From: Candidatus Latescibacterota bacterium
GTDB taxonomy: Bacteria; Latescibacterota; UBA2968; UBA8231
Assembly (NCBI GenBank): GCA_965223905.1
Contig: CBDCXV010000011.1
Coordinates: 192,001 to 256,000 of the forward strand
Direction of reading: 5' to 3'
Length of the DNA: 64,000 bases
The notes under the pieces were generated by a model. The model made no database searches. It was not told the DNA's origin and saw nothing but the letters and a program-made list of their open reading frames with translations. Shown here in pieces: positions 1,954-9,242 of this stretch (the stretch's first letter is position 1; each line of letters begins with the position of its first letter). A program made the translations under genes and the position numbers.

Positions 1954-3768
1954 ATGAGTGCGACCATACACAGACTGTCCGAAAACGTAATCGGCAAGAT
2001 CGCCGCGGGAGAGGTGATCGAAAGACCGGCCTCAGCGGTCAAGGAACTGGTCGAGAACTCTCTCGATGCGGGCGCGGAACGCATCTACGTCGACATCGCT
2101 GCCGGGGGCAGGCAGCTGATCCGCGTGGCCGACGACGGCGCCGGGATGACCGCCGAGGACGCCTGCCTGTCGGTGGAGCGCCACGCCACCAGCAAGATGC
2201 AGAGTCCCAGTGACCTGTTCGCCATCGACACACTGGGATTTCGAGGGGAGGCCTTGGCCAGCATCGCCGCGGTTTCCCGGGTGACCATCGAAACCTGCAA
2301 TGGGGGAGAGGGAGAAGGCACCCGAATCGAGGTGGAAGGTGGAATCCGTACTCATCTCGGTGCCATCGCCAGGGACAGCGGCACTACGGTCAGTGCACGC
2401 AGCCTGTTCTTCAACACCCCGGCGCGTCGAAAATTCCTCCGTCACATGGACACCGAAGCCCGTTACATCACCCTGTGTGTCTCCCAGTTGGCCGTCGCCT
2501 ATCCTGAGGTGGCGTTCCGCGTGACCCACAACGACCGCGTGACCCTCGACCTCCACTCCGGTGACCGCGCGAAGCGCGTCTCGGAGGTGGTTGCGGTCGA
2601 CCCGGCGCTCCTACTGCACGCAGCCTCAAATATCGATGCGGGAGCGGCCGGTCGAATCTCGGTAGAGGTGCTGGCAGGATCCCCGCAAATATGTCAGCGC
2701 AGTCGCACCCGGCAGTACGCGACAGTCCGCCAGCGGCCTGTTTACCACCGGAAATTGAACTCCGCGGTATACGAAGCTTACGGCAGCCTGTTGCCCCACA
2801 ATGCGCACCCGGTTTTTGCGCTCTGGCTCGATATCGATCCCAGGACCGTCGACGTAAACGTCCATCCCACCAAGAAAGAGGTCCACTTCTCCTCGGAAGG
2901 GGATCTCGTCAAAGCAGTGCAATCTATTGTGCGACAGGCACTAGACGTTCCTGAGGCAAGCGCGTTCAGAGCTTCTTCCGGAATCGGCTCGACGGGGGAG
3001 AGACCTGCTTACGGGACATCTACCGGGGCAGCGGGCCACGGCAGGGTCCTGGAGACTCCCGCCGAGCCGTTCGGTCCGGAACACGATACCAACCTCGATC
3101 AGCTGTCACTTTCCCTGTTGCCACCGGTCAGGTTGGGGACCGCTGAAAGTGCTGGTCAACCTCTGACGGGGCAGGAGATTGACCAGCTGTCATCGGACGC
3201 AGAGTCAGCGCCGATTTGGCAGATCCACAACAAGTACATCGCGCTGCCGACCTCGGACGGCATCGCCATAGTCGATCAGCACGTCGCCCACGAACGCATC
3301 CGTTTCGAGGAGGTGCTGGAGGAGCTCGACCGGGAGCAGGGAACCTCCCAGCAGCTGTTGTTGCCTCTGACGCTCGACCTGTCACCCGTAGAGATGATTG
3401 CTTTTCAGGATGCTCGCGGCTTGTTCGAAAAAATCGGCTTTGGAGCACGTGAATTCGGTCCTACCAGCCTGATAGTGGATTCCATCCCTGGCGAACTCAG
3501 GAATTGGGGTGACGGCGCAGTATTTCAGGAGATCATCAGCGACCTGATCGAGGAGAACGAGACTCGTTCGACGACAGGGCAAGCCCTTGCGGCATCGATG
3601 GCTTGCCACACTTCAATTCGGGCAGGAGAACGCCTGAACCAGGAAGAGATGCGGACCCTCGTTCAGCGATTGCTCAAGGCGCGTGAGCCTTTTGCCTGTC
3701 CTCACGGAAGACCCATAATAATCCGGATTCCCCTCAGTAATCTCGACAGGCTGTTCGGTCGCACCTGA
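1954..3768 (+). CDS. mutL: DNA mismatch repair endonuclease MutL
   Basis: IAAGEVIERPASAVKELVENSLDAGA, GFRGEAL, VDVNVHPTK, endonuclease motif DQHVAHERIRFE, CPHGRP. Confidence 0.97.
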   Translation: MSATIHRLSENVIGKIAAGEVIERPASAVKELVENSLDAGAERIYVDIAAGGRQLIRVADDGAGMTAEDACLSVERHATSKMQSPSDLFAIDTLGFRGEALASIAAVSRVTIETCNGGEGEGTRIEVEGGIRTHLGAIARDSGTTVSARSLFFNTPARRKFLRHMDTEARYITLCVSQLAVAYPEVAFRVTHNDRVTLDLHSGDRAKRVSEVVAVDPALLLHAASNIDAGAAGRISVEVLAGSPQICQRSRTRQYATVRQRPVYHRKLNSAVYEAYGSLLPHNAHPVFALWLDIDPRTVDVNVHPTKKEVHFSSEGDLVKAVQSIVRQALDVPEASAFRASSGIGSTGERPAYGTSTGAAGHGRVLETPAEPFGPEHDTNLDQLSLSLLPPVRLGTAESAGQPLTGQEIDQLSSDAESAPIWQIHNKYIALPTSDGIAIVDQHVAHERIRFEEVLEELDREQGTSQQLLLPLTLDLSPVEMIAFQDARGLFEKIGFGAREFGPTSLIVDSIPGELRNWGDGAVFQEIISDLIEENETRSTTGQALAASMACHTSIRAGERLNQEEMRTLVQRLLKAREPFACPHGRPIIIRIPLSNLDRLFGRT

Positions 3769-3782
3769 ACAGCCGGAATATG

Positions 3783-3845
3783 TAAATCCCTTGGGATTTA
3801 GTGAGGATTTGTTCGGAATTTCCAGAACACCCTGTTCTGCGGAAT
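3783..3845. terminator. Two palindromes between convergent mutL and recombinase genes; possible terminator or binding sites
   Basis: TAAATCCC-TT-GGGATTTA (3783-3800) and CAGAACA-CCC-TGTTCTG (3823-3839). Confidence 0.35.
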
Positions 3846-3873
3846 ATCAACTGTTCCTTGGGACCTCGACCGG

Positions 3874-4800
3874 TCAGGAACCGTAACGGATTCTCGCTAC
3901 GGCGCCGCGCGCTGCCAACTGGCCGCGCGCATAGTGACCGGGCATTTGCGGCGATGTCCAACGGCCGGCAGTCTGCATCTCCGCAATCGAAGCGCCTCCC
4001 GCAGCAAGAGACTGGGCGCCACCTACCCGTAGGGAGTGACCTGAGACATTTCCCTCGATTCCCGCCGCGGCACACCGGTGCTTGATGATATTCCGGACTG
4101 ATACGGTGCTCAAGGCATGTCTTCCAATCCGGTCGCCGCGGTGAAGACGCCTGAAAACGGCCCCCTCGTCAATCCCGGCTGCATCCATCCAGGTCTTGAT
4201 TCTCCATGCGGTCGGCGCGCCAAGGAACACAACGACCCCGGCTCCTTCCTGGTCGGTTTTCGATTGGCTTATCGTTAGCCGGGCGGATCCGTCGCTTTCA
4301 AAGAAGATGTCCGCCACCTGGACAGCGGAGATCTCCGAAACGCGGAGTAGACCGTCCGAAGCGACCGCCACCAGGGCGGAGTCTCTCAAACCGGCCAACG
4401 AGCCATCGGAAGCTACTGCCGCGGCGGCGTCAGCCTGGGCAAACTGGACACCCTGCACCTGACCCCGTCCGCGGCCCTTTCCCGCGCGACGAATTCCTCC
4501 CAACACTCTGTCCGTGGCCGGACCGGATGGGGAAGTCCCACCTTGCAACTTCGCACGGAACTTGACCGCAGCGACTACCTGGGAGCAGGTCGCCGGAGAC
4601 TTTCCTGCGGCGTGCAAGCCCGCGATATAGTCGGCAAGCAATCCGTCCGTCAAAGGATGGCCGGCAAGGTGCCTGTCGATCCTCCTCAACGCGTGCTGGT
4701 AAGCCCGGCGGGTGTTCTCGGAAACGCTGGCCATGACCAAATCCCGCACTGTCCCGGAATTGGCAAGCCCTTGAGGGGATTCTGTTGTAGTCAGTTCCAT
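3874..4800 (-). CDS. Cre-like tyrosine recombinase (SAM-like N-domain plus catalytic domain)
   Basis: Complete catalytic set: R (LLRVSE), K (SKTDQEG), HxxR (GHSLR), W (GRW), Y (HYAR). N-terminal 'SENTRRAY' and 'SPATCSQ' helices. Confidence 0.92.
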   Translation of the reverse strand: MELTTTESPQGLANSGTVRDLVMASVSENTRRAYQHALRRIDRHLAGHPLTDGLLADYIAGLHAAGKSPATCSQVVAAVKFRAKLQGGTSPSGPATDRVLGGIRRAGKGRGRGQVQGVQFAQADAAAAVASDGSLAGLRDSALVAVASDGLLRVSEISAVQVADIFFESDGSARLTISQSKTDQEGAGVVVFLGAPTAWRIKTWMDAAGIDEGAVFRRLHRGDRIGRHALSTVSVRNIIKHRCAAAGIEGNVSGHSLRVGGAQSLAAGGASIAEMQTAGRWTSPQMPGHYARGQLAARGAVARIRYGS

Positions 4801-4816
4801 TGCATTTCTGGTTGAA

Positions 4817-4850
4817 ATTACTTTTGTTAACTGTAATTATACAAAGTTTA
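4817..4850. promoter_or_regulatory. Candidate lox-like recombination/operator site (13-8-13)
   Basis: ATTACTTTTGTTA-ACTGTAAT-TATACAAAGTTTA. The arms match loxP arms at 8/13 and 10/13. It lies 17 bp upstream of the recombinase ATG. Confidence 0.45.
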
Positions 4851-4864
4851 TTTCCAGGAGTCAA
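4836..4864 (-). promoter_or_regulatory. Sigma70 promoter of the recombinase gene
   Basis: Minus strand TTGACT (4864-4859), 17-bp spacer, TATAAT (4841-4836). Confidence 0.75.
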
Positions 4865-4974
4865 GCAAGGGGTGTCTTGGCGGGCTGTTCACCAGCCGAG
4901 GCGAGATTTGTTTACAAAATAATTTTTACAGGTAATTCTTTTTCAGAAAATCGGACACCCCAAATCAGCCAGGA

Positions 4975-7905
4975 TCAGACTACGATATTGAAAATTCTTC
5001 CCGGGACGTACACAAACCGCCTGGGCCCCCTTGAATCCGGAAGGTAGCGGCGCACGTTGTCAAGCTCGAGGATCAACTCTCTTGCCTCGTCTTCGGTAAT
5101 CCCGGCAGGAACTTCAACGCTCGCCCTAACCTTGCCGTTGACCTGCACAGGCAAGATAACGGTCTCCTCGACCATCAGATCTGTCTGGGGCCGCGGCCAT
5201 TCCTGGACCGAGAGATTCCCGTCGCCGAAACCCCAGATGCTCCACAGCTCCTCTCCAAGGTGAGGGGCGAAGGGTGAGAGCATCAGAATAAGGGAACGCG
5301 CCATCTCGTCCGAAACAGCCTCCTTTTTTACCAGGTCGTTGTTGAGCTCGATCAAGGCCGCGATGGCGGTGTTGAGCCGCAGTCCCTCGATATCATCCGT
5401 CACCTTGGAGATCGTCCGGTGAAGCTTCTTGCGCAACGCGACGTCTTCCTCTTGTCCCGAAGGCATCCTTCTGGCCCTTCCCTCCTGAGAAACCAGGTTG
5501 CGCCACACGCGCTGCAGAAAGCGCTGCATTCCGCGTATTCCCTCCATGCTCCACGGCGTGCTCTGCTCGAGGGGCCCCATGTACATCTCGTACAGGCGCA
5601 GGGTGTCGACGCCGTACTCCTCCCCAACCTCCTCCGGGGGCAGCCCGTTCTTGTAGCGCTTCCCCATCTTGCCGCCGGAACGGGTCAGGGGCTCTCCCGT
5701 CCGCGAGTGGAAGGGCTTGCCATCGCGCAGCTCGACCTCGCGGATGTCGATGTAGACGCCGCGGGCGTCGGTGAAAGCATCGGCCGTTATCATTCCCTGA
5801 TTGAACAGCTTCTTGAACGGCTCGGGTGAGGAGACGTGCCCCAGGTCGAACAGCACCTTGTGCCAGAACCGGGAATACAGAAGGTGGAGCACCCCGTGCT
5901 CGGCGCCGCCGATGTAGAGATCGACCGGCATGAAATGCCGCTCCTTGTCAGCGTCGCAGAAAGCCTCTGGGTTGGCGGGATCGATAAAGCGCACGAAGTA
6001 CCAGCAGGATCCCGCCCACTGGGGCATAACGTTCAGTTCCCTCTCGCATTCGATTTCATTTAGGGAGACCACCCGCCAGTCGTCGCCGGCTCGCCCCAGA
6101 GGCAGCGAAACCGGAGTGTCGGGATCATCCGAGGTTTGCGGACGGAAGTCCTCCATCTCTGGGAGCAGGACAGGCAGGTCGGTAGCGACCGAATAACCCT
6201 CGGGGGTGGTAGCCAGCGGGAAGGGTTCTCCCCAGTACCTTTGCCTGGAAAAGATCCAGTCGCGCAGCTTGTAGCGAACCGCAAATCGTCCCACGCCAGC
6301 GCTTTCCAGTGCGGAGGTGATTGCTGCCTTTGCCCGGGCCGTCGACAGGCCTGTGATGGAGAAGTCGCTACCGCCATCGGCGGACGAATTGATGCTGGTG
6401 CCATCGGCGGTGAAGCACTCCCCCGCTTCCACCCGGGCGGTCTCCGGCGCCTGGACGACTTGGATCACCTCGAGATCGTATTTGCTCGCAAAATCGAAAT
6501 CGCGGTCGTCGTGCGCGGGAACCGCCATAATGGCGCCGGTTCCGTATTCCATCGAGACATAGTCGGCGACAAAAACCGGAATGACAGTGCCGCTGGCCGG
6601 GTTGCGGGCCCATATCCCTGTGAAAATCCCCGACTTCTCCCGCTCGTCGATTTCCCTTGAAACTTCAGTGACTCCCACCGCCGCGGCGACATAGTCGGCA
6701 ACTGCTTCCCGCGGTCCGGACGCCTCCCAGTTCTTCCAGCTTTCTCTCGTGCCTTCGGGCCAGTGTTCCGGAACGAGATACTCGGTACTGTCGGGATCGA
6801 GGAGCGGGTGGCCGGGAGCGACCACCATGAAGGTTGCCCCGAACAAGGTGTCGGGACGAGTCGTGAACACTTCCTGGCGCGACGCCGTTTCGCGGGATTC
6901 CGGCAGCAACAGGTCGAACAGAATTTCCGCCCCCTCGCTGCGCCCGATCCAGTTCCGCTGCATCAGCTTGATCGGTTCCGGCCAATCCAGGGCGTAGCGG
7001 CCGCCGCGTCCGTCGGGGAGGTCCGTTGAATCCAGATCGTGCAAAAGGCGATCGGCGTAGGCGGTGATACGCAGCATCCACTGCCTCAGCGGCCGCTTGT
7101 ACACTGGGAAATCGCCGATTTCGCTACGGCCCTCCCCGGTGACTTCCTCGTTGGCAAGGACCGTGCCCAGCCCAGGGCACCAGTTGACCGTCACCTCCCT
7201 CTGATACGCCAGCCGGTAGTTGTTTAACACCGCGGCCCGCTCCGGTTCCGTCAGCTGGGACCAGTCGGCAGGTGAACGGTCTCTGCGTTCCCCTCCCGGA
7301 AGTGAAACGAGGGTTTCGAGATCGCGGTCGGAGAGAGCACGCCGTCCATTGGCAAGTGCATCTTCCAGCTCCCGGATCGGCACTGCCTTTCCCTTGATCT
7401 CGCGACCTGCGGCGTCCGACTGAACCGCTTCCGGATCGAACCAGCAGTCGTAGAGCTGCAGAAAGATCCACTGGGTCCAGCGGTAGTAGTCCGAGTCCGA
7501 AGTCGCCAGCTCCCGATCCCAGTCGTAGGCCAGACCCAAGGCCTGAAGCTGTCCGCGCATGCGATCGATACATTCGCGTATCGCCGTGGACGGATGCACG
7601 TTGTTGGCGATCGCGTACTGCTCCGCAGGCAGGCCGAAGCTGTCGAATCCCATCGGGTGAAGAACGTTGAATCCCCGCATCCTCTTGAAGCGGCTGTAGA
7701 TGTCGCTGGCGATATAACCCTTGGGGTGGCCAATGTGGAGCCCGTCCCCGCTAGGATAAGGGAACATGTCGAGGACATAGCACTTGGGCCGGGAATCGGC
7801 GAATGGACTTTCCCCGGGACCGTGCGTCTTGAACGTCTTCTCCCTCAGCCAGCCCTGACGCCAGCGACGTTCAATCTCCTGAAACTGATAGCTTCCCCTC
7901 TTCAT
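4975..7905 (-). CDS. leuS: Leucine--tRNA ligase
   Basis: MFPYPSGDGLHIGH, FTTRPDT, YGTGAIMAVPAHD, LRDWIFSRQRYWG, VQVNGKVR. Start placed at MKRGSY (7905) because the longer ORF overlaps asnS. Confidence 0.97.
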   Translation of the reverse strand: MKRGSYQFQEIERRWRQGWLREKTFKTHGPGESPFADSRPKCYVLDMFPYPSGDGLHIGHPKGYIASDIYSRFKRMRGFNVLHPMGFDSFGLPAEQYAIANNVHPSTAIRECIDRMRGQLQALGLAYDWDRELATSDSDYYRWTQWIFLQLYDCWFDPEAVQSDAAGREIKGKAVPIRELEDALANGRRALSDRDLETLVSLPGGERRDRSPADWSQLTEPERAAVLNNYRLAYQREVTVNWCPGLGTVLANEEVTGEGRSEIGDFPVYKRPLRQWMLRITAYADRLLHDLDSTDLPDGRGGRYALDWPEPIKLMQRNWIGRSEGAEILFDLLLPESRETASRQEVFTTRPDTLFGATFMVVAPGHPLLDPDSTEYLVPEHWPEGTRESWKNWEASGPREAVADYVAAAVGVTEVSREIDEREKSGIFTGIWARNPASGTVIPVFVADYVSMEYGTGAIMAVPAHDDRDFDFASKYDLEVIQVVQAPETARVEAGECFTADGTSINSSADGGSDFSITGLSTARAKAAITSALESAGVGRFAVRYKLRDWIFSRQRYWGEPFPLATTPEGYSVATDLPVLLPEMEDFRPQTSDDPDTPVSLPLGRAGDDWRVVSLNEIECERELNVMPQWAGSCWYFVRFIDPANPEAFCDADKERHFMPVDLYIGGAEHGVLHLLYSRFWHKVLFDLGHVSSPEPFKKLFNQGMITADAFTDARGVYIDIREVELRDGKPFHSRTGEPLTRSGGKMGKRYKNGLPPEEVGEEYGVDTLRLYEMYMGPLEQSTPWSMEGIRGMQRFLQRVWRNLVSQEGRARRMPSGQEEDVALRKKLHRTISKVTDDIEGLRLNTAIAALIELNNDLVKKEAVSDEMARSLILMLSPFAPHLGEELWSIWGFGDGNLSVQEWPRPQTDLMVEETVILPVQVNGKVRASVEVPAGITEDEARELILELDNVRRYLPDSRGPRRFVYVPGRIFNIVV

Positions 7906-7952
7906 CTCTGTTGTCTTCAAGGTCGTTGTCTCGTCCGATTTGACGGACCTGC

Positions 7953-9242
7953 TCAAGGATACAGCCGCTGCAGCATCCGAGGAAACGGTATGGTCTCGCG
8001 CACGTGCCTGATCCCACAAAGCCACCCTACTACACGTTCTATCCCCATCCCGAAACCGGAGTGCGGCACGGAACCGAATCGGCGCAGGTCGAGATACCAC
8101 TCGAAGGCCGCTCGCGGCAGGCCGTGTTCTTCGAGACGCTCCTCGAGGACCGGGAGATCATCTTCGCGCTGGCCGCCGCCGATGATCTCCCCGTATCCCT
8201 CGGGAGCCAGCATGTCGACGCAGAGAGCGAGCTCGTCTTTCTCCGGATCTCGCTTCATGTAAAATGCTTTAACCTCCGCAGGGTAGCGATGCACGAGGAC
8301 CGGTGAAGTGAACTGTTCCGAAAGAAGGGTTTCGTCGTCTCCGCCCAGATCGGCTCCCCACTCGATATCGCTGCCATTGTTCCGAAGGGTTACGACCGCC
8401 TCGTCGTAGGTCATGCGTGGGAACGGCTTCGACACCGCTTCCAGGGGGGCGAGGTCACGCTCCAGCACGGCGAGTTCGTCACCGCCCTGTTCGAGTACCC
8501 GCTGGACAACGAAACAGAGGAGGTCTTCCGCCACCTGCATGTTGCCGTCGAGGTCGCAGTAGGCGATCTCCGGCTCCATCATCCAGAACTCCGTCAGGTG
8601 TCGCCGCGTCTTCGATTTCTCCGCCCGAAAGGTCGGTCCCAGACAGTAGACCTTTCCGAAGGCCATAGCCGCAGCTTCCATATACAGCTGACCGCTCTGG
8701 GTAAGGAAGGCAGTGTCCCCGAAATAGTCGGTCTCGAAAAGCGTGGTGGTTCCCTCGCAGGCAGCAGGAGTCAGAATCGGGGCATCGATCAGGATGAACC
8801 CCTCCCGAGCCATGAAGTCACGGCAGGCCTGGATGACGTAGCTGCGGATTCTCAGCGTAGCGTGTGGGCGCGAGGAGCGCAGCCAGAGGTGCCTGTTCTC
8901 CATCAGGAAGGACACCCCGTGTTCCTTCGGTGAAATCGGGTATTCGGCGGCCTTGTGAACCGCTTCGATCGAGGAGACCCCCAGTTCGTAGCCGAGCGGG
9001 GAACGCTCATCCTGGCGCACCACCCCCCTGACGATAATCGCTGACTCCTGGGGCAGGTTTCCGGCGCGTTCGAACACCTCCACCCCGACATCCCCCTTGA
9101 ACAGTACACACTGGATGAGACCGGTCCCGTCCCTGACCTGAAGAAAGTGGAGCCTGCCGCTCGACCGCTTGTTGTAGAGCCATCCCCTCAGCTCGACTTC
9201 GCGGCCATCGACGGCGATGTCCCGTATTTCTACTCGTTCCAT
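7953..9242 (-). CDS. asnS: Asparagine--tRNA ligase
   Basis: [53 protein letters not shown]. Confidence 0.96.

Follow-up and report, generated by a model that had tools for sequence, protein, structure and literature searches.

A Cre-Type Recombinase Gene with a Candidate lox-Like Site on Its Own Promoter in the Terminus dif Locus of a Candidatus Latescibacterota Bacterium

The closest described systems to the locus reported here are Cre/loxP of P1 and the other Cre-type pairs, Vika/vox, Nigri/nox, Panto/pox, and the YR series (excerpts of PMC10250229); Cre is the best relative, by sequence and by fold, of a tyrosine recombinase encoded between mutL and leuS in a Candidatus Latescibacterota bacterium (GenBank assembly GCA_965223905.1). 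We analysed a stretch of 64,000 nucleotides around this gene (contig CBDCXV010000011.1, positions 192,001 to 256,000; hereafter the window, whose numbering is used throughout) and compared the locus with its counterparts in related genomes. In common with the Cre-type pairs, it has the residues R-K-H-R-W-Y and, beside the gene, a 34-bp candidate target with lox-like arms, made up of 13-bp inverted arms and an 8-bp spacer. It differs from Cre/loxP in that the candidate site lies on the −10 element of the gene's own promoter, whereas the P1 lox site lies 419 bases upstream of cre, and in its setting: the module is part of the chromosome, lies in a dif locus at the replication terminus, and in two genera is passed on with the host. 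Published screens for Cre-type targets found them within 1 kb of the recombinase gene, with a success rate of about 50% (excerpts of PMC10250229).

Three further systems invite comparison. In the single-recombinase Xer systems XerS/difSL, XerH/difH, and XerL/dif, as at this locus, the recombinase gene stands directly beside its own site at the terminus (PMC5357621; 10.1101/2021.09.12.459815), and xerS adjoins difSL as one module (PMC5357621). The recombinase described here, in contrast, is no Xer by sequence, its candidate site has a 13-8-13 geometry, and the genome has XerC/D-like genes and XerCD-type dif-like sites as well, so XerCD/dif has not been replaced. Cre-loxP can substitute for XerCD-dif within ter of Escherichia coli in an FtsK-dependent manner (PMC2680272, citing Leslie and Sherratt 1995). 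The engineered dif::loxP strain with Cre resembles our locus in that its Cre-type pair, too, has one site only, located in the region of the terminus (PMC2680272), whereas here the arrangement is natural, at least one dif-like site is kept beside it, and the role is a predicted one. The dif modules of Acinetobacter are likewise short and bounded by inverted XerC/XerD-type sites (PMC6449649; PMC13141974; PMC12907356); the present module differs in lying at the main chromosomal terminus, in having as its cargo a recombinase with its own candidate site, and in not having been seen in other contexts. Among the matches listed by our literature searches there was no description of such a terminus cassette, and none mentioned Latescibacteria, which is weak evidence of absence in print. 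Judged from its sequence, the putative pair is a new addition to the Cre-type systems, and its setting is a new version of arrangements already known, namely a terminus dif cassette in which it stands in place of an Xer-like recombinase.

The recombinase has an intact reading frame in which R153, K181, H255, R258, W281, and Y290 align with the catalytic residues of Cre, and these six residues are invariant across eight aligned family members. In a phmmer search of solved structures, Cre was the best relative (3.9e-16 over residues 55-304, a match that takes in both domains), and all 17 sequence matches were Cre or Cre variants. An AlphaFold model of the protein, which is of moderate confidence (predicted local distance difference test score 64.7, with a poor C-terminus) and was used solely for fold ranking, gave the same answer in Foldseek: Cre and Cre-derived (Tre) chains occupy the head of the ranking as far as listed rank 30 (best E value 6.8e-11), with XerA, IntI, XerD, XerH, and lambda Int behind them. 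Identity to Cre in the fold-search alignment is about 21-24%. The NCBIfam Xer models score the protein at 28-45 bits (XerA 45, XerD 40, XerC 34) against cut-offs of 220-335 bits, placing it outside the Xer group by sequence. No further gene, tRNA, or Rfam RNA was found in the mutL-leuS gap (list of open reading frames [ORFs], tRNA and Rfam scans), and a repeat search within 3700-5050 detected no flanking repeats suggestive of element ends. A preliminary description of this DNA, made from the letters of the window, had reported an intact R-K-H-R-W-Y recombinase between core genes with no cargo, and it was right on both counts; mutL borders the same slot in relatives. One metatranscriptome contig, from a run labelled sponge metagenome, spans 4339-4494 inside the gene, a weak hint that the gene is transcribed. 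The public runs consist of contigs only, from which strand, level, transcript ends, and inversion joints are not readable, and gene parts that no RNA contig covers carry no meaning.

The candidate site lies immediately upstream of the recombinase gene (Table 1). The gap between the 34-mer and the ATG at 4800 is 16 bases, not 17 as first reported; the site had been placed one base off. Recomputed against the P1 lox arm, TATACGAAGTTAT (P1 record L165, 5-17), its arms match at 8/13 and 10/13, the values originally given. The overlap with the −10 element of a TTGACT-17-TATAAT promoter in an AT-rich patch also held up: the promoter scores 11/12, four bases of its −10 belong to the end of one arm and the other two to the start of the spacer, and the GC content is 0.38 at 4801-5000 versus about 0.6 in the surroundings. 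The two arms agree with each other at 7/13, which had been flagged from the outset as a possible sign of a chance match. That caution was warranted, because the best 13-8-13 repeat in control stretches of 330 bases mostly reaches 8-9 (range 7-12), and the site of this genome, taken alone, is no better than chance as a palindrome.

Table 1. Features of the mutL-leuS slot and its borders, in window coordinates
Feature	Coordinates	Strand	Description
mutL, left border of the slot	1954..3768	+	NCBIfam TIGR00585, 5e-140; Pfam MutL domains
dif-A remnant	3778..3788	+	XerD-arm-like half-site ATATGTAAATC only
Cre-type tyrosine recombinase gene (P0001)	3874..4800	-	308 amino acids; Pfam Phage_integrase, 2.3e-13; closest to Cre
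lox-like site (candidate)	4817..4850	-	on the coding strand, left arm TAAACTTTGTATA (4850-4838), spacer ATTACAGT (4837-4830), right arm TAACAAAAGTAAT (4829-4817)
sigma-70-type promoter	4836..4864	-	−35 TTGACT (4864-4859), −10 TATAAT (4841-4836)
dif-B	4909..4936	-	XerCD-type dif-like site, inverted relative to dif-A; 29.0 bits with the dif model from other genera
leuS, right border of the slot	4975..8100	-	TIGR00396, 1.3e-265; start codon may be over-extended

Comparison with other genomes changes this picture. Orthologues of the recombinase lie between mutL and leuS in two sister species of the same genus (G002, 87% identity; G001, 84%) and in a second genus, g18 (G019, 66%). All four orthologues, from the two genera, carry a 13-8-13 site at the same promoter position, with left arm, spacer, and right arm reading TAAACTTCGTATA, ATTGTAGT, and TAACAAAACTAAT in G002; ATTAGTTTGTATA, ATTCACGT, and TATCAAAACTAAT in G001; and GTTACTTGGTATA, ATATCCCT, and TATAGAAAGTAAC in G019. 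The −10 TATAAT is invariant on the arm/spacer junction, and the −35 reads TTGACT in the genome under study (G000), TTGACG in G001, and TTGACA in G019. The intergenic DNA of G001 is otherwise unalignable with that of the other two species of the genus, and the block over the site is retained; because the synonymous divergence (dS) of the recombinase gene within the genus is 0.6-1.0, unconstrained DNA would not be expected to stay so similar. The right arm, downstream of the −10, is kept in both genera, and the spacer centre differs in every species while the arms hold. Arm symmetry reaches 11/13 in G001 (counted by hand) and in G019; position 1 of the arm is G on both G019 arms, and position 5 is G on both G001 arms and C on both arms in G000 and G019. 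The majority arm of the four orthologues, taken by eye, matches the P1 lox arm at 11/13.

The site is also single-copy. The search of the genome that the preliminary description had proposed found one copy of the 34-mer, with no other match at up to 10 mismatches in 34; the consensus pattern, at up to 3 mismatches, has one match each in G000, G001, and G002, and the site is single-copy in G019. The 34-mer is unchanged in contigs of three studies. Two of the three DNA samples have contigs with a strain variant just outside it, an extra C after 4816.

In the wider family, 17 of 53 loci have a 13-8-13 repeat of at least 10/13 within 300 bases upstream of the recombinase gene, compared with 6/53 in-gene, 5/51 far upstream, and about 6% after shuffling, counts that overstate independence in that several of the 53 loci are near-duplicates. 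This enrichment agrees with the published practice of searching for targets within 1 kb (excerpts of PMC10250229). On the strength of its conservation upstream of the orthologues, the lack of which the first account had named among its grounds for refutation, we take the site to be real. The proposal of a new recombinase/target pair is accordingly upheld as far as the four orthologues and the family enrichment reach. What it had missed are the paralogues of the gene and the context described below: the terminus position, the dif locus, and the different recombinase that relatives keep in the same slot.

The mutL-leuS gap is the replication terminus, as judged by a switch in GC skew and by its position opposite dnaA. 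Along contig C11 of the genome under study, which carries the lox-like site at 196817-196850, cumulative GC skew climbs over the first 150 kb or so, levels off until 195 kb, and turns sharply downward with the 195-200 kb bin; on contig C1, dnaA sits at the skew minimum. The same turn is seen in G001 and G002 (400 kb each), where strong skew on the leuS side extends up to the recombinase locus. Measured from dnaA in six complete genomes, the slot is 47.7% (G002), 47.3% (G001), about 49% (G019), about 50% (G010), about 48% (G020), and about 46% (G004) of the way round the chromosome, the last four values having been computed with rounded genome sizes. Genes converge on the slot, mutL pointing rightward and the recombinase, leuS, and the next genes leftward. 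On the mutL side, in G000, G001, and G002, skew is near zero over 40-60 kb (about 150-195 kb of C11 in G000); this flat stretch, which adjoins a sharp skew edge at the slot, may mark a zone of termination or a past rearrangement.

Loci collected around mutL were obtained from 25 of 31 genomes of the family, and the slot turned out to house two kinds of recombinase. Four loci hold the Cre-like type and 18 an Xer-like type; two have no recombinase within 1.5 kb, and there leuS is not adjacent either, and one locus is too short to judge. All 15 loci with both mutL and leuS in view have a gap of 1.19-1.37 kb holding a recombinase gene. An empty mutL-leuS site, for which a comparison of relatives had been suggested, is thus absent from these 15 loci. 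The Xer-like recombinase has 315-350 residues and scores 128 bits on the XerC model, and in front of its gene there is usually a 28-bp palindrome with a dif-like layout, such as ACTAACGATAATACCCGTTATCGTTAGT; XerCD-type dif-like sites occur in the relatives' gaps, often one per side and inverted. In most genera of the family (loci L063-L083) the protein has the C-terminal sequence ..TTMRYYENRE.., and in L063 its gene is on the opposite strand. The slot of G010 contains the Xer-like type, which was not found in G000, G001, G002, or G019, so that the two modules are mutually exclusive. Genus g18 has both, the Cre-like module in G019 and the Xer-like module in G044. Because every genome with the Cre-like module in the slot lacks the Xer-like one, one of these recombinase/site modules has taken the place of the other. 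The locus under study thus resembles the relatives' Xer-like terminus cassette in its slot and in its flanking inverted dif-like sites, and differs in that a Cre-type recombinase and a lox-like site stand in its place and one dif-like site is half deleted.

To score dif-like sites we used a model trained on 19 such sites from other genera only and applied it to the whole genome under study and to 400-kb terminus stretches of G001 and G002. The best match in the whole genome is dif-B, 58 bases from the lox-like site; the next scores 24.9 bits. Its homologues, between leuS and the promoter, score 28.6 bits in G002 and 32.7 bits in G001. A full 28-bp dif-A lies between the recombinase stop and the mutL stop in the same two species (36.8 bits in G002, 42.3 bits in G001), so that the two top matches of each lie to either side of the module and on opposite strands, and unrelated matches come next at 21.1 bits in G002 and under 14.3 bits in G001. 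Further dif-like sites were seen in G019. The inverted flanking sites are thus both complete in the two sister species, whereas the genome under study has one full site and one half-site, having lost about 40 bases with the other arm and the spacer of dif-A. This half-deletion is not an assembly slip, because contigs of runs X1, X3, and X5, from three studies, span 3536-3960 ungapped, although the source sample itself may be among these runs.

Two minor results bear on the dif-like sites. A search for canonical dif with a short core motif (ATAA-N6-TTATGT-N-AA) gave no exact match and three one-mismatch matches in the genome, none of them near the terminus, and was superseded by the model trained on relatives' sites. 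In a low-depth X5 contig, positions 4867-4966 (98 bases including dif-B) are replaced by 106 other letters, with about 93% likeness beyond; this variant contig is probably from a related species.

The slot copies of the recombinase are under strong purifying selection: the ratio of nonsynonymous to synonymous divergence (dN/dS) among the three species of the genus is 0.09-0.12, beside 0.12-0.16 for mutL. Between G000 and G002 the dS of the recombinase is 0.59 and that of the adjacent mutL 0.21, nearly a threefold difference; against G001 the excess is smaller (0.96 versus 0.66). Exchange of the module among lineages, or a weaker constraint on its codons, could account for the excess.

We propose that the terminus dif cassette once held an Xer-like module and that a self-regulated Cre/lox-like pair has taken its place, with sister-site recombination as its most likely activity, and put the probability of this reading at roughly 45%. 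The gene would encode a functional Cre-type recombinase, and the 34-bp 13-8-13 site upstream is its predicted target. Transcription would be expected to start inside the site, and recombinase bound there would block the −10 and the start, shutting off its own promoter. Such autorepression, suggested by the sequence, fits the geometry, since each of the four orthologues has its −10 on the arm/spacer junction. The same logic, a bound recombinase blocking its own promoter, applies to Tn3-type resolvases at res. Gene and site together make up a module of 1.2 kb that lies between inverted dif-like sites within the terminus dif locus. With a single site per chromosome, the only partner is the same site on the sister chromosome or in a dimer, and recombination between sister sites would resolve or unlink dimers alongside XerCD/dif, as Cre/loxP does in E. 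coli when inserted at dif. The pattern of replacement but never loss, and the strong purifying selection, speak for a host-useful role, which we would rate at slightly worse than even odds. A bolder version, in which a Cre-type pair took over the terminus cassette in two Latescibacterota genera and serves the host by unlinking dimers, as a natural counterpart of dif::loxP, seems to us doubtful. On that view, the Cre-type pair may carry a larger share of the dimer work in the genome under study, where one flanking dif-like site is destroyed.

Several observations weigh against this proposal. XerD- and XerC-like genes are present (277 and 158-160 bits, below the curated cut-offs), and given these genes and the dif-like sites, a second system for dimer resolution is not obviously needed. 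The symmetry of the arms, at the chance-level 7/13 in G000, falls to 5/13 in G002, where the −35 is also degenerate (TGGGTA), and the promoter by itself could explain why GTATAAT is conserved. The paralogues of the recombinase occur in mobile-looking contexts. Strand-skewed 8-mers, as FtsK-guiding words, gave no sharper position for the terminus; those drawn from a training arm showed no clear flip in the test region, and their cumulative minimum fell at about 186 kb. Outside the family, the Xer-like slot recombinase was not found in any of five complete genomes of the sister family (E value 1e-20). The Cre-like homologues of that family, which have perfect 13/13 palindromes 150-166 bases upstream, were rejected as terminus genes, since they lie 7.5-13% (one of them 43%) from dnaA. 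The terminus module is therefore a feature of one family and not a general requirement.

Part of the same evidence fits a selfish history, in which the pair is cargo of an XerCD-driven dif cassette, swapped in by Xer-mediated exchange of the kind proposed for the Acinetobacter dif modules; the recombinase would then promote nothing but its own spread or maintenance and be of no benefit to the host. The inverted dif-like sites flank the module in both sister species, with more such sites in G019; g18 is polymorphic, having a Cre-like recombinase in one genome and an Xer-like one in another; close paralogues are multi-copy, and the family is spread across many phyla of metagenome-assembled genomes (MAGs); and the roughly threefold excess of recombinase dS over mutL between G000 and G002 could mean a separate history. 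Cargo of this kind would not be expected to look as it does here, however. The slot clade is found in the mutL-leuS slot only, with none of 77 related loci placing it elsewhere, selection on it is strongly purifying, all 15 slots contain a recombinase that has been replaced but never lost, and the gene of G000 is intact despite the destruction of one flanking dif-like site. We consider this explanation rather unlikely, short of dismissing it.

Two other explanations concern the site itself, and to both we give a small chance. The locus could be a landing pad for mobile DNA carrying a matching lox-like site, where integration would part the −35/−10 from the gene and the resulting off-switch would lock the insert in place. 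The geometry of promoter and site suits such a device, and paralogues occur in integrative-looking elements, yet there is no second copy of the site in the four genomes, the arm pattern has no exact match in IMG/VR viral contigs or JGI metagenome contigs, and no occupied form was seen in any relative examined. Alternatively, the conserved block could be promoter plus operator or leader only, its likeness to lox a matter of chance in AT-rich DNA, and the recombinase could act elsewhere or not at all. The 7/13 arms of G000 and the presence of TATAAT in the invariant core are what this would predict; the conservation of the right arm downstream of the −10 in two genera, the 11/13 symmetry in G001 and G019 with arm positions that change symmetrically, the 11/13 match of the majority arm to P1 lox, and the enrichment of such repeats across the family all argue the other way and make it as improbable as the landing pad.

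If the bolder version, a natural counterpart of dif::loxP, is the correct reading, the terminus cassette would be a slot in which unrelated recombinase/site pairs interchange. For chromosome biology, the comparison points to a whole bacterial family that keeps a recombinase and site module in its terminus dif locus, one exchangeable for an unrelated Cre-type module. Whether an Xer protein is required for dimer resolution, or a recombinase with its site in the right place is enough, has so far been tested by E. coli engineering only, and this locus offers a natural case in which the question is directly testable. For tool building, it adds a further natural Cre-type enzyme with a well-supported predicted native target, in three to four natural enzyme/site variants.

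The gene had been called solitary, which does not hold for the genome as a whole. It contains another five paralogues of full length (65-69% identity), several fragments, and a 35% relative in two identical copies. The related public loci are titled as Candidatus Latescibacterota MAGs and, at 40-60% identity, also as MAGs of Poribacteria, Acidobacteriota, Binatia, Gammaproteobacteria, Dehalococcoidia, and others, often in multiple copies. In a quick tree with support from the Shimodaira-Hasegawa-like approximate likelihood ratio test (SH-aLRT), the slot copy of G019, the three slot copies of the genus, and nine non-slot paralogues form one clade (SH-aLRT 99) whose internal order is not settled by the tree. 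Among the 77 related loci, two have mutL and leuS as neighbours, and no member of the slot clade was found elsewhere.

Some of the paralogues sit in repeats of their own, outside the window. Each of the two identical 35% copies (G000:C10:475880-476734 and G000:C10:1641974-1642828) is preceded by a lox-like inverted repeat (..TTGCTCCTGATAAC..GTTATCGGGAGCAA..) and followed by a related half-site, which suggests a separate mobile element that has sites of its own. A further repeat, about 2.56 kb long, is present in three copies, 91-98% identical, at approximately G000:C10:43648-46212, C9:475020-477582, and C9:787845-790433. It stops about 30 bases past the stop codon of a Cre-like paralogue; no lox-like repeat was recognised at its ends, and the left flanks of two of the copies have GCGATATGAT.GGATAT in common.

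At the right border of the slot, the leuS ORF (1041 amino acids, with a GTG start) overlaps the upstream ORF of a class II tRNA synthetase (7953-9242) by 148 bases and exceeds the bacterial LeuS model by about 200 residues. Its true start is probably further in, or else the protein has insertions.

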